The notes under the pieces are model-generated. The model made no database searches, was not told the DNA's origin, and was given only the letters and a program-made list of their open reading frames with translations. The position numbers and the translations under genes are program-made. Shown in pieces: positions 4,975 to 12,638 of a DNA stretch of 64,000 nucleotides (position 1 is the stretch's first letter; each line of letters starts with the position of its first letter). Origin of the DNA: a virus; IMG/VR virus record IMGVR_UViG_3300025570_000007. One strand, given 5' to 3'.

Positions 4975-5520
4975 TTACTTTAGTTTTTTTAATACTTCAT
5001 TTAATAGTGAGTCCACTGGTTGTTTTACTTTATACTTTTCTACATACCCTCCTAATAACGGTGTAGCTATGTCGATATTTTCTCTTAAATTAGCCTTAGT
5101 AATACCTTTCATTTTAAACAGCTCTAACACAACGTCACTATGTGTCTTCTTAGGTGTTTTTGGTGTTTCTACTTTAACTACTAGTTTTTGCTCTCTTATA
5201 GAAGGTTTACTGTTTTCCGCTACTTCTACTGTTACCTTCTTACTGGTCTTGATTAGAAATTCCCCACTCCATGGTGAGAAGAAAGTATCATTAGCTATTA
5301 CTTCTAATTTCAGATTTCCTGATGTACCTTCTTTAAGAAAGCCTTTCAGTTTAGTAACTGGTACTGTACATTCCCCACTGGAGTCTACTTTACCTTCAAA
5401 TAAAAGGCTAGCACCTGTATTTTCAAATACTAGTCTAGCTTGAACATCGTCTATATCTGAACCTTCTACTCCAATCTTACATTTAAAGTCTTCGGTTTTG
5501 TCGGTATAAAATGTATGCAT
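4975..5520 (-). CDS. Hypothetical late protein (Ig/adaptor-like N-domain)
   Basis: 181-aa ORF preceded by the late motif at 5534-5541. Confidence 0.6.
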   Translation of the reverse strand: MHTFYTDKTEDFKCKIGVEGSDIDDVQARLVFENTGASLLFEGKVDSSGECTVPVTKLKGFLKEGTSGNLKLEVIANDTFFSPWSGEFLIKTSKKVTVEVAENSKPSIREQKLVVKVETPKTPKKTHSDVVLELFKMKGITKANLRENIDIATPLLGGYVEKYKVKQPVDSLLNEVLKKLK

Positions 5521-5586
5521 TTAATTCGTTTATTATAAATAGCGAGAAGTTATTGAAACGGTGTTCCGGCAATTATTATTAAATCT

Positions 5587-5613
5587 AAAAAAAAGACCAA
5601 GAGTTACTTGGTC
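5587..5613 (-). terminator. Intrinsic terminator after queC
   Basis: Sense GACCAAG-TAACT-CTTGGTC-T8. Confidence 0.8.
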
Positions 5614-5637
5614 CTTATAAATAGTGTATGTTATTAA

Positions 5638-6513
5638 TTAACTTGCTGTATGTTCTGCTAAAACTTTTTCTACTGCTGCTCTTGCTACTTCGTATTCTAC
5701 AGGACCTGTTTCGTCTGCATATGCTACAGGATCAAGTCTTCCTAGTTTAATAAATGCCTCTATACGTTCTACTGAAGATGCTGATTTATAATCAGAATAC
5801 CATTTACCGTGTATGCTTCCGTCATCGTTCTTTACAAAGTCGCTTTGAATGAAGATTGGCTTGTATGAAGTATTGGTTCTTGAATAGACTTCATCGAAAT
5901 CTAATCCTAATTTTTTACATACTACTAATCCGTCTTCTAGTATACCAAATTTATCGGTATTTAAATAAGGTGTAAAATACCCTACTCTTTCTGCATCCCA
6001 ATTACCCATTCTAAAAGCTGCATCATCGGCATCTCTAAACTCTTGACGACAGTCGGGATATACTGCATGATCTCCTGCATGTATTCCTAATGCAATATCA
6101 CAAGTTTCTCCTGTTCTATTTGCAATTGATAAAGCTACGGCTTGAGCAATAGAAGCAAACATCTTGTTACGGTTAGGTACAACTGTTTCTTTCATATTAT
6201 CTTGCTCATAATGTCCTTCCGGAACATCTTTACCTCCTGTCACTAGTGCCGAGTCTAATAGGTCTACTAGTCCGTCTAACTTAATTTGACGGTACGTAAT
6301 TAAGTCCACATCTGGTTCAACAAGGTCTTTTATGCTACTGTTAAGGTTAACGTAACTTACTAGCGATACAGCTCTTTCTAACTCTACTCTATGTTTTTGA
6401 CCGTAATCAAATGAGATAGCAGTTACGGTATCGTACTCTGTTAAAGCTCTTAATAGTAATGTTGAGGAATCCATCCCTCCTGATAAGGATACTACTACAT
6501 GTTTTTTTGCCAT
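5638..6513 (-). CDS. queC: 7-cyano-7-deazaguanine (preQ0) synthase
   Basis: PP-loop SGGMDS, FDYGQKH, VPNRN, GIHAGDHAVYPDCR. Confidence 0.95.
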   Translation of the reverse strand: MAKKHVVVSLSGGMDSSTLLLRALTEYDTVTAISFDYGQKHRVELERAVSLVSYVNLNSSIKDLVEPDVDLITYRQIKLDGLVDLLDSALVTGGKDVPEGHYEQDNMKETVVPNRNKMFASIAQAVALSIANRTGETCDIALGIHAGDHAVYPDCRQEFRDADDAAFRMGNWDAERVGYFTPYLNTDKFGILEDGLVVCKKLGLDFDEVYSRTNTSYKPIFIQSDFVKNDDGSIHGKWYSDYKSASSVERIEAFIKLGRLDPVAYADETGPVEYEVARAAVEKVLAEHTAS

Positions 6514-6531
6514 GTTTATTTAAATTTAAAA

Positions 6532-6567
6532 TTTGCCAGGTATTGTAAAGCGTATAGGCAAACGCTT
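6532..6567 (-). ncRNA. Candidate H-type pseudoknot in the queC leader (putative riboswitch or operator)
   Basis: Sense AAGCGU-UUGCC-UAU-ACGCUU-UACAAUACCU-GGCAAA gives P1 AAGCGU/ACGCUU and P2 UUGCC/GGCAA. Confidence 0.5.
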
Positions 6568-6571
6568 GAAC

Positions 6572-6877
6572 TTAATCGACGTTTGCGATACTGCTCATTT
6601 TATCTTTAATCTCTTCCCAAGCTTTAAGATAAGCACCCACTGTTTTGTAGTGTTTGTTTTTATGGTCTTGAAGGTACTTAGCTGTTCTCTTCAGTGCTGA
6701 GTTAAATGTTGAGGGGTAACATAGTGCATCAATATACTTTGTGTTATTCTCTCCTCTAATTACTCTTTTGTAAATGGTATACCCTCCTGCATCTGATTTT
6801 GTAATAAAGTAAGGTTCCATTGCTGGGTCTTCAATGATTGTATCTCTTGAAGGAATTGAATCTGGTTTACGTAACAT
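6572..6877 (-). CDS. Hypothetical protein
   Basis: 101-aa ORF in the queC operon. Confidence 0.7.
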   Translation of the reverse strand: MLRKPDSIPSRDTIIEDPAMEPYFITKSDAGGYTIYKRVIRGENNTKYIDALCYPSTFNSALKRTAKYLQDHKNKHYKTVGAYLKAWEEIKDKMSSIANVD

Positions 6878-6898
6878 AACTTATTTAATTTATAAAAT

Positions 6899-7243
6899 TT
6901 ATTTCCAAAATACTTGTACTACTACTATAATAAAAGACAGAAGTAAGGTAATACCTGTCTTAAGGTTTATACCTTCCCCCAGATGTACATAAGTTAGAGA
7001 AGCCATAATAATCATACCTGTTGAAAAACCTACTAACCTTCCTGGCCATAATAAGCCGTCAAAGCCTTTTACCGCATACGTTGTTGCAACTATTAGTATA
7101 TAACTCACAGGCCATCCTATTATTGCTAACAGCCAAGGCCTATCTTTTGCCCATTCTGACAGGAATTGGGCATTTGTCTGGTACCATATGATCAGTTGAC
7201 CGGCTGTGAATAGGCAGAGTGCTATTATTATATCTTTATTCAC
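6899..7243 (-). CDS. Small four-TM membrane protein (DMT/SMR-like size and topology)
   Basis: 114 aa with four hydrophobic segments and a C-terminal HLGEGINLKTGI resembling DMT motifs. GTG start. Confidence 0.6.
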   Translation of the reverse strand: MNKDIIIALCLFTAGQLIIWYQTNAQFLSEWAKDRPWLLAIIGWPVSYILIVATTYAVKGFDGLLWPGRLVGFSTGMIIMASLTYVHLGEGINLKTGITLLLSFIIVVVQVFWK

Positions 7244-7387
7244 CTATTGAACGCCTCTTGCTCTGTAGTGGTTAGCTCTAGATCTCTTTTCTATCTTTGT
7301 CTTGATAGTATCTCCTTTTACTGTGTTAAATTGCTTTAACCATTCATCTAACTGTGCTACTCTTGCTCTTGCGCTATTTTTTGACAT
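7244..7387 (-). CDS. Small basic hypothetical protein (47 aa); missing from the ORF track
   Basis: MSKNSARARVAQLDEWLKQF...RARGVQ*. First gene after the promoter at 7409-7438 and abuts the next start codon. Confidence 0.6.
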   Translation of the reverse strand: MSKNSARARVAQLDEWLKQFNTVKGDTIKTKIEKRSRANHYRARGVQ

Positions 7388-7408
7388 CTTTATCTAGTTT
7401 ATTTACAT

Positions 7409-7438
7409 TAAGATAAGGTAATTTTCCCACATAGCCAA
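7409..7438 (-). promoter_or_regulatory. Bacteroidota-type host RNAP promoter (queC operon)
   Basis: Sense TTG-N20-TATCTTA. Confidence 0.7.
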
Positions 7439-7876
7439 CTATTTCATCTTATTTCCATCGACTGTAATCTCATGCCAGTGTACTCGACCTTCCTCAATTG
7501 CTTTTTTTATATTTTTCTGCTTTCCCATTAGGAAAGCGTTTCCACTTTTCACCTCTACAAAATGTACTGAAGCTTTTGATGGACTTCCTGAGTCTTTAAA
7601 GCAGACATAGTCTATAGGCATTCCTAGAAATACGCAATCTTCTGGCGGAACGGGGAAATCAGTCATGAAGGGTACGAAATGTTCAATAGTCTTACCCCAT
7701 TGTACTGCGCCTGATCTCTTCTTAGCATCTATTCTAATCCTGCCTCTCTCTTTTTCAAATTCTTCCTTAATTTGCTGAACTTCTTTTTGATGTTCTTTGG
7801 TTCTTTTTTTTGAGGCTACGTAACTAACTGCTAGACCTATTAACAGTATTATTGCTATCCCTATGTTTATTCCCAT
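7439..7876 (-). CDS. Holliday-junction-resolvase-related PD-(D/E)XK endonuclease with N-terminal membrane anchor
   Basis: GKTIEHFVPF...FLGMPIDYVCF...FVEVKSG, with a hydrophobic N-terminus and coiled coil. Confidence 0.8.
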   Translation of the reverse strand: MGINIGIAIILLIGLAVSYVASKKRTKEHQKEVQQIKEEFEKERGRIRIDAKKRSGAVQWGKTIEHFVPFMTDFPVPPEDCVFLGMPIDYVCFKDSGSPSKASVHFVEVKSGNAFLMGKQKNIKKAIEEGRVHWHEITVDGNKMK

Positions 7877-7920
7877 ACTATCTTCTGTTTTAATTAACCT
7901 TTATTTTAGTAAGTTTCGTA

Positions 7921-8286
7921 TTAATTAAGTATTCCCTTTAGCCAAGAGTACCTTTTTCTAGTTTCAAAGTAATCTAAGTTATTCTGGTTAGCGTATGCTT
8001 CTTTTTCTGCTGCTAAATGATAATATGCTTTAGATCCAAATTTAAAAAGTTTAAAAGCCCACTCTATTACGTACAGTAGGTAGAAGGGGACTACCCCTAT
8101 TTCTAAAGCTTGTTGAAAATGTATCGATTCGTGATTAACGGTTGTTATTCCTTTCTTAGCATGAGTGCCTCCCTCTTTATACTTTTCTCTAAGAATAATA
8201 AAGGGCCACAGTGAAATGCCTCCTATGCTCATAAATATTGAAATGCTTTTTAAAAATCTGTCACTGTATATAATTACTGGTTTCAT
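7921..8286 (-). CDS. HExxH zincin-like membrane-associated protein
   Basis: NHESIHFQQ followed by E(K)EAY. Confidence 0.65.
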   Translation of the reverse strand: MKPVIIYSDRFLKSISIFMSIGGISLWPFIILREKYKEGGTHAKKGITTVNHESIHFQQALEIGVVPFYLLYVIEWAFKLFKFGSKAYYHLAAEKEAYANQNNLDYFETRKRYSWLKGILN

Positions 8287-11783: not shown

Positions 11784-12638
11784 TTAGTTAAATAAGTCGT
11801 CGAATTTTGCTACTGCACCTTTCTTATTCTCTGTTGCAGTCTCTAAGGTAAAGTCTGTTTTTTGCTTTCCTAATGCTTCAGGAAGGTCTTTGTCTTCTTT
11901 CAAAGATTCGGACTTAGTAGCTTTCTTAGCTTCTACCTCTTCTTTTGAAGGAAACGGTGATTCATCTTGAGATTTTTCTTCTACTGCGTTTGGATCTAAG
12001 TAGCTCTTAAGCTGTGTCTTAATGTGGTCGTAACTATATTGAGTAAAAGATTCTTCTGCTATTGGCTGTTCTTTTAACCATAACTCAACTTGCTTATTAT
12101 CTTCTGATAATGGGGTTTGTTTAGGTTTAATTCGAACACTAGTTTCAGGGTAAGGGTTTCCTTTTTGCTTATCAACTACCAAGTCCCATCCGTTAATAAC
12201 ATCAGTGAAATCACCTATGTCTTCATCTTCTGCTAAAGCAAGTAATGCTTTGTATATAGTTACACCAAATCCGTATAACCTAACTCCCTGATCTTCTTCA
12301 CCTCTTACGATTACCGGAGCATATATTCTAAGTTTTGGATTAAGTTTTCCTGATAGTGACCAGTTGTCCTTATCATCTGTTTTACGTAATTCTTTTACGA
12401 ATTCGTCAATAGGGTCTTGTTTACCGAAGTTTGATAAAGCTATCATTGGGAACTTTCCTATATTAAAGTGAAACTTTAATTCAGTAAAAGGATAAGCTGG
12501 GTTGTTTACTGCAGGGACTATCCGAATGGTCTGTTTACCGAATTCTGGTTTCCAAAAGATTTTTGAGAAGTCAATCTTCTCTCTATCGTTGTCACTGTTA
12601 AGAGCATCTAGCTTAGCTCTGATTGCATTAATGTCCAT
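11784..12638 (-). CDS. Single-stranded DNA-binding protein (T4 gp32-like)
   Basis: FWKP...IRIVP...GDFTDVINGWDL, C-terminal FDDLFN tail, located beside recA. Confidence 0.8.
   Translation of the reverse strand: MDINAIRAKLDALNSDNDREKIDFSKIFWKPEFGKQTIRIVPAVNNPAYPFTELKFHFNIGKFPMIALSNFGKQDPIDEFVKELRKTDDKDNWSLSGKLNPKLRIYAPVIVRGEEDQGVRLYGFGVTIYKALLALAEDEDIGDFTDVINGWDLVVDKQKGNPYPETSVRIKPKQTPLSEDNKQVELWLKEQPIAEESFTQYSYDHIKTQLKSYLDPNAVEEKSQDESPFPSKEEVEAKKATKSESLKEDKDLPEALGKQKTDFTLETATENKKGAVAKFDDLFN

Follow-up and report, generated by a model that had tools for sequence, protein, structure and literature searches.

The window, that is, the whole 64,000-nt stretch of viral DNA analysed here (IMG/VR record IMGVR_UViG_3300025570_000007), encodes T4-like gp32 (the homologue lies at 11784-12638), gp19, a prohead protease and a DnaB-type helicase, and on its minus strand it carries a queC gene (5638-6513) whose 291-aa product matches the QueC Pfam family (PF06508, E = 3e-35). 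Upstream on the same strand lies an ORF of 101 aa without a Pfam match (6572-6877), and a gap of 58 nt separates its stop codon (TAA, 6574-6572) from the queC AUG (6513-6511). Direct reading of the sequence of this gap on the minus strand reveals, at 6567-6533, two interleaved stems with the topology of an H-type pseudoknot of 35 nt. Both stems are perfect Watson-Crick helices: P1 (6 bp) is formed by AAGCGU (6562-6567) and ACGCUU (6548-6553), with A6553 pairing with U6562, the invariant junction-proximal U, and P2 (5 bp) by UUGCC (6557-6561) and GGCAA (6533-6537). The UAU of loop 2 (6554-6556) places U6554 immediately ahead of the 3' strand of P1, while U6556 stands opposite U6538 in a U-U mismatch; loop 3, UACAAUACCU (6538-6547), is A-rich and includes a nearly invariant 3' block, AAUACC, at 6544-6539. 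An A/U-rich, unstructured spacer without a Shine-Dalgarno sequence (6514-6532) connects the knot to the start codon: A6532 is followed by the 18 nt (6531-6514) that set the distance between knot and AUG. The original prediction had described AAGCGU/ACGCUU and UUGCC/GGCAA as interleaved in the 58-nt gap, 18 nt before the AUG, and the coordinates and pairing bear this out. Drawn as UUGCC/GGCAA, P2 leaves a loop 1 of 0 nt, which is sterically awkward; the consensus of the family described below has instead a P2 core of GCC/GGC (here 6557-6559 and 6535-6537) with optional U-A pairs on its outer side and 1-4 nt in loop 1, and in that frame U6561, and perhaps U6560, belongs to loop 1.

Since the stop codon of the upstream ORF lies 4 nt before P1, the motif in the window is intercistronic. 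On the other side of the gene, a terminator-like hairpin of 10 bp with a U-run (5592-5616) begins 22 nt past the queC stop; it is the sole such site found by a terminator scan of 5500-8000 and suggests that queC is the end of its transcription unit. From the intercistronic position of the motif, together with this hairpin, it follows that any control exerted by the knot would most likely be translational. The knot itself was considered as an intrinsic terminator of the upstream gene and rejected, as P1 is followed by UACAAUACC with no U-run and the terminator scan returns only the site at 5616-5592.

The QueC lineage to which the protein of the window belongs keeps the SGGMDS, YGQKH and VPNRN motifs and is devoid of the C(x)8CxxCxxC zinc motif that typifies canonical QueC; alignments of the window's QueC to solved QueC structures end at residue 182. 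The window region, part of a Flavobacterium-type phage, shares 74% DNA identity with Flavobacterium phage vB_FspM_immuto (hereafter immuto). Isolates of immuto are the only cultured carriers of this QueC lineage among 50,697 phage records, and hundreds of IMG/VR contigs encode QueC proteins 60-79% identical to that of the window. In immuto, all dG is replaced by formyl-preQ1, and the phage encodes FolE, QueD, QueE, QueC, QueF, DpdA3 and DpdN (PMC10516641). Because all G is swapped for formyl-preQ1, the flux through this pathway is large. It may be observed in passing that immuto makes its preQ1-derived DNA with this zinc-motif-less protein as its sole QueC.

As a lone sequence, the knot of the window constitutes weak evidence, and its significance comes solely from comparative data. 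The nested minimum-free-energy fold of the single leader is uninformative (z = -0.10), shuffling the 58-nt gap 20,000 times produces a 6+5 bp H-type knot on 89 occasions (0.45%), and of 8,526 overlapping 58-nt segments of the actual 64 kb, 25 contain an equivalent 6+5 bp knot (some 13 sites, counting both strands). The leaders of related queC genes present a different order of evidence. Read directly, they display the motif about 20 nt before the queC ATG irrespective of the upstream gene, with a main type that may be written RCGU-N1-2-GCC-UAU-ACGY-N2-4-AAUACCU-GGC. A structure-aware scan found the knot in 167 of 277 loci or, counted as distinct leaders of the phage queC lineage, in 102 of 177, as against 5 positives in 1,385 shuffled regions. 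Across the family, P1 spans 4-7 bp, loop 1 0-4 nt, P2 3-8 bp and loop 2 1-2 nt ending in U, and the A-rich loop 3 extends over 8-16 nt and ends in A[U/C]AC[C/U]. The distance from the end of the knot (P2) to the ATG ranges over 13-25 nt among unique motifs and is most often 18-20 nt. Stop-codon readthrough or frameshifting out of the upstream ORF was likewise entertained and set aside, given that the upstream genes, their stops and their frames vary between contigs and that the spacer often contains stops.

Outside the helices, unpaired nucleotides beside the junction are conserved. Of the 58 unique motifs, 49 have AU and 9 have U as loop 2, counts from a scan that demanded the U, and the final 7 nt of loop 3 read (U/A/C)AAUACC in 50 of the 58 and A[U/C]AC[C/U] in 58/58, counts from a scan anchored on this block; as the structure scan demanded the junction letters, its 58/58 counts are no independent test of their conservation. 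That is provided by MAFFT alignments, made independently of the structure scan, in which the closing U and A of P1, the U of loop 2 and the AUAC are invariant in 54 sequences. One variant group (L461, L462, L465, L469 and L470) combines an 8-bp P2 with a GGAG Shine-Dalgarno sequence 3 nt past the knot, which implies either a host outside the Shine-Dalgarno-less Bacteroidota or a different mode of initiation.

Both helices are maintained by compensatory change. In the 40 sequences of the main group, P1 is 99.5% paired, and three of its five pairs show compensatory replacements (G-C/A-U/G-U, C-G/G-C/U-A and G-C/A-U); the P1 covariation score was reached by 0 of 500 shuffles, shifting the partner columns abolishes the pairing, and RNAalifold, blind to the proposed structure, predicts the same P1. 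The P2 core of the main type, GCC/GGC, is nearly constant, with one A-U and one G-U exception. It is the divergent leaders, recovered via other QueC queries, that widen the range: with these included, positions 2-6 of P1 and positions 2-6 of P2 each present 3-5 standard pair types among the 58 unique motifs, and across the family P1 takes the form of about 7 distinct helices and P2, in an unchanged register, of about 10. Divergent P1 helices include GGAU/AUCC, AGGUU/AACCU, AGUGGUU/AACCACU, CCGGUU/AAUCGG and AGUGAUU/AAUCACU, and divergent P2 helices include GCUAC/GUAGC, GGCCC/GGGUC, ACUCC/GGAGU, GCUCC/GGAGU and GUUCC/GGAAC, as well as GAAGC/GCUUC, UAGAGC/GCUCUG, AUGAAAGC/GCUUUCAU and AUGGAAGC/GCUUUCAU. 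The MAFFT alignment of main and divergent variants together is structurally inconsistent, and the family was parsed by a custom structure script; the pair-count statistics refer to the main group only. Conservation and covariation in homologous queC leaders had been named beforehand as the test of the original prediction, and the result is clear, as both stems covary.

The same data bear on whether the pairing could be fortuitous, or the conserved letters a signal at the DNA level such as a promoter or a terminator. The unimpressive single-sequence statistics would agree with this, as would the loop 3 of some members, which resembles an A/T-rich -10-like or T4 late-promoter-like box (TATAAATA in L416). 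Yet compensatory changes in two interleaved helices are left unexplained by a promoter, a reading that the covariation rules out, no U-run follows P1, and the promoter and terminator scans list nothing at the motif; an origin of this kind is thus exceedingly improbable. We are accordingly highly confident that the pseudoknot is a real, conserved and dedicated element of the queC leader. It is very probably an uncatalogued gene-control RNA and possibly a riboswitch.

The dedication of the motif to queC emerges from several searches. A pattern scan of IMG/VR that was not anchored on this gene returned 117 stretches, about 45 of them with intact P1 and P2; all of these intact matches precede queC or sit at a contig end where the QueC N-terminus starts, and the remaining ones are random and stemless. 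When 4.3 Mb of phage loci were scanned under strict structural criteria, 87 true sites were obtained, all ahead of QueC-type ORFs, including that of L091 with a SAGMDS loop in its QueC, and the roughly 40 extra A/T-rich matches correspond to the shuffle rate, leaving no other credible site. A covariance model built from the main sequence type (R1) finds one site in the 64-kb window at 58 bits, with the next best at 13 bits, and in complete phage genomes of 150-170 kb one queC site each at 54-63 bits, with all others at 19 bits or below. Within immuto, queC alone of the seven pathway genes has this leader: queD, queE, dpdA, dpdN and queF adjoin upstream genes, and queC lies 11 kb away from them.

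The contig L416 (IMGVR_UViG_3300007540_000054) records what looks like a cassette replacement with the old leader left behind. It bears two copies of the motif 390 nt apart (1047-1090 and 1442-1482): the first, of the main type (61 bits), is followed by a queC stub of 7 codons (MARYCVF-stop) and then by a 62-aa ORF, while the second, a variant with ACUCC/GGAGU, stands ahead of an intact queC. An orphan motif with its stub beside a variant motif with an intact gene indicates that motif and queC behave as one exchangeable cassette. The same contig offers a separate observation on gene neighbourhood. The ORF at L416:3-683, which in several contigs lies two genes upstream of queC, resembles a TGT/DpdA-type transglycosylase to judge from its residues (…LHLLGCASP…), so that a putative dpdA, a small ORF, the motif and queC would be adjacent in those phages.

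In cellular genomes, no comparable leader came to light. With R1, nothing above 27 bits was found in 153 Flavobacteriaceae genomes, the best matches being stemless, bare AATACCTGGCA strings; as R1 misses most of the divergent variants (among those searched, 13.8 bits are reached by L391 and 9.7 bits by L416, and the rest are unreported at E <= 10), these bacterial searches span the main sequence type only. A pattern scan of 185,579 species genomes gave no real copy among the 120 matches listed, and no such leader precedes the genes of the best 25 QueC homologues (identity of 43% or less) from 401 Bacteroidota genomes. Within the limits of the main-type model and the sampled genomes, the motif is therefore phage-specific.

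About 42% of the distinct related queC leaders (e.g., L339, L353, L378 and L396) are without the motif. These relatives have no leader at all, the queC ATG adjoining or overlapping the upstream ORF (e.g., …AAUAGUGAAUUAUGG…), which suggests that translational coupling takes the place of the pseudoknot in them. This dichotomy may be accommodated by a knot that works constitutively and independently of any ligand, protecting the processed queC mRNA at its 5' side, insulating queC from ribosomes that finish the upstream gene or fixing the rate of initiation at a low or high level. The classic build of a stable H-type pseudoknot (in which loop 1 is short, loop 2 measures 1-2 nt and loop 3 is long and rich in A), the P2 of 5-8 bp in some variants and the location of the window motif 4 nt past the upstream stop might all be read in the same way. 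However, a generic device would not be expected at just one gene, always the same one, per genome of 150-170 kb in many phages, and the strict invariance of the unpaired junction bases, along with the weak, three-pair P2, points to something more than bulk stability; we therefore consider a constitutive role unlikely.

Among known RNAs, the closest parallel might be struck with the preQ1-I riboswitches (RF00522; e.g., those of B. subtilis queC, T. tengcongensis and E. coli), one of the three classes of preQ1 riboswitches distinguished in a 2024 review (PMC11625349). Both are H-type knots of about 35 nt in which P1 has about 5 bp, P2 is short and loop 3 is rich in A, both are situated in the leader of a 7-deazaguanine gene (queC), and both likely exert translational control via the P2 3' strand or the tail. 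In its overall form the phage motif indeed agrees with what is expected of the class, namely, an H-type pseudoknot some 34 nt long within the leader of a queuosine/7-deazaguanine gene, being 35 nt long and ending 18 nt before queC. The preQ1-I class is defined by a specificity cytosine that immediately precedes the 3' strand of P1 (as UC in type I and as AC in types II and III) and pairs with preQ1, and a conserved G (G5) in the closing G-C of P1 makes up the floor of the pocket and contacts the aminomethyl group through its O6 (PMC11625349). In the phage motif, the specificity C is replaced by U in 54/54 MAFFT-aligned sequences, and the closing G-C by U-A in the same 54/54 and also in the 58 scan-defined motifs. 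Loop 2 measures 1-3 nt as against 4-6 nt in preQ1-I. In preQ1-I, the A-rich 3' tail (loop 3) rests in the minor groove of P1, ahead of a short P2 3' strand; loop 3 of the phage motif is A-rich (e.g., UUAAAAUACC) but has a conserved block of its own, AAUACY, which is absent from preQ1-I. Unlike in preQ1-I, moreover, P2 touches no Shine-Dalgarno sequence, most of the hosts here using none, and the motif is found only in phages.

Rfam searches point in the same direction. At E <= 10, the 301 nt at 6400-6700 of the window yielded noise only, with neither RF00522 nor any other riboswitch family; at E <= 1, seven variant loci gave none of these families either. A divergent preQ1-I member that binds preQ1 in the canonical manner would share the topology, the approximate size, the A-rich loop 3 and the position before queC as in Bacillus (PMC11625349), but the failure to match RF00522, the U in place of C, the U-A in place of G-C and the loop 2 of 1-3 rather than 4-6 nt make this very unlikely. 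The element thus resembles preQ1-I in topology and context and is not a member of it. The original prediction was right that the canonical loop C and consensus of preQ1-I are absent, as evidenced by the U at the specificity position, the U-A at the floor and the want of an Rfam match; its view that the knot has the same size and topology as preQ1-I holds for topology and fails for size, on account of the shorter loop 2 (1-3 nt vs 4-6) and the P2 of 5-8 bp in variants. The preQ1-II and preQ1-III classes (RF01054 and RF02680), which are HLout knots of about 80-100 nt with P1-P4/P5 located before queT, were rejected too, the motif being 35 nt long, with two helices, before queC and without an Rfam match. 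In the literature, searches turned up no phage queC riboswitch, no fourth preQ1 class and no description of the motif.

Two further leaders with some outward semblance of preQ1-I may be recorded in their own right. The 70-nt folE leader of immuto (L518:10328-10397) contains a hairpin, GGAG/CUCC, with AC ahead of its 3' strand and AUAAAAAC behind it; for all this preQ1-I-like look, it gave no Rfam match at E <= 10 and no clear P2 was seen. In L504, L510 and L515, which are Bacteroidota with distant queC-like genes, …CCACGUAAAAAACA… occurs shortly before the ATG and is reminiscent of the preQ1-I tail; these leaders had no match at E <= 1 in a 36-kb Rfam scan.

A second parallel leads away from metabolites. 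The gene 32 operator of phage T4 consists of a pseudoknot followed by an unstructured A/U-rich stretch up to the start codon, and here, too, a T4-like phage has an H-type knot upstream of an unstructured A/U-rich leader. The differences are that the gene is queC and not that of an ssDNA-binding protein, that the knot is nearer to the AUG (18-20 nt) and that no cognate binder is evident; an assignment to the gene 32-type operators was rejected, as the motif precedes queC and the gp32 homologue of the window is encoded at 11784-12638. By analogy, nevertheless, QueC itself or an RNA/ssDNA-binding protein might bind the knot, cover or block the A/U-rich leader and thereby repress queC. The similarity in form to the gene 32 operator and the presence of gp32 in the window of a T4-like phage may be counted in favour of such a translational operator, and conserved loop nucleotides would be equally suited to a protein, with no switching helix being conserved. 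Against it, the one constant companion of the motif is queC, whose product is not known to bind RNA, the upstream neighbour varies between contigs, the motif is retained in the variant group with a Shine-Dalgarno leader, which probably belongs to another type of host, and conservation is concentrated around the helical junction of the 35-nt RNA, a pattern shared with small aptamers. On balance, a protein-binding operator seems rather unlikely.

The clustering of conserved residues invites comparison with SAM-II (RF00521), SAM-V, SAM/SAH, guanidine-III and fluoride riboswitches, which are likewise minimal knot aptamers with conserved residues lining the junction or grooves and which effect translational control without a separate expression platform, as is proposed here. 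They differ in that the phage motif has no Rfam match to them and that their gene associations are unrelated to queC. It is this model of a ligand-sensing riboswitch, acting as a new, phage-specific cis-regulator of queC translation, that we favour for the queC knot, judging from sequence comparison that such a reading has about an even chance of being right. A more specific version is advanced tentatively and with a little more doubt: the knot might represent a previously undescribed, phage-restricted class in which 35 nt sense a 7-deazapurine intermediate and gate queC translation by blocking ribosome loading on a Shine-Dalgarno-less leader. Given the U at the specificity position, the ligand is possibly not preQ1 itself.

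Bacteroidota mRNAs generally have no Shine-Dalgarno sequence and rely on unstructured A-rich leaders. Against this background, the knot would act in cis on the translation of queC in the following manner. The P1 hairpin, at about -6.5 kcal/mol on its own, should fold unaided, while P2, consisting of three G-C pairs in most members and only marginally stable at -3 to -5 kcal/mol, would close only once the conserved junction nucleotides were organized. With so little energy in P2, closure of the knot in most members plausibly needs tertiary contacts or a ligand at the junction, and the organizer would most plausibly be a small ligand supplied by 7-deazaguanine synthesis, such as preQ0, preQ1, CDG or a related compound. 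Once folded, the knot, with its 3' edge 18-20 nt before the AUG, might then hinder the loading of 30S/S1 on the A/U-rich, Shine-Dalgarno-less leader.

Several strands of evidence are consistent with a riboswitch of this kind: the recurrence of the knot in 102 of 177 distinct leaders as against 5 of 1,385 shuffled regions, the covariation of both P1 and P2, the conservation of the unpaired junction nucleotides in the 54 MAFFT-aligned sequences, the marginal stability of P2, and the exclusive association with queC, in one copy per complete phage genome that moves with the gene. The spacing to the ATG is fixed, and neither RNAalifold nor the terminator scan found a conserved competing helix or a terminator between the knot and codon 10. 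The large pathway flux in immuto (PMC10516641) would also suit a metabolite sensor. Other features run counter to it. No alternative, switching structure is conserved; compact knots with A-rich loop 3 triplexes can be stable free of ligand, and the P2 of the 5-8 bp variants should fold unaided; about 42% of the related queC genes manage without the motif; the U at the preQ1-I specificity position offers no obvious fit to a guanine-like ligand; and at a distance of 18-20 nt from the AUG the knot could occlude the start site only indirectly.

Immuto-type phages swap every guanine of their DNA for a 7-deazaguanine derivative and thereby evade restriction, and we know of no account of how this guanine-replacement pathway is regulated. 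With a small leader RNA that is strongly conserved and serves queC alone, the pathway would have its first described regulatory element. Should this RNA bind a metabolite, it would represent a new aptamer fold or mode of recognition for the preQ1 family and a compact sensor of 7-deazapurines. It would also offer a test case for translational control by riboswitches in Bacteroidota, where mRNAs are without Shine-Dalgarno sequences, and a cultured pair that has the motif exists in vB_FspM_immuto on Flavobacterium sp. LMO8.
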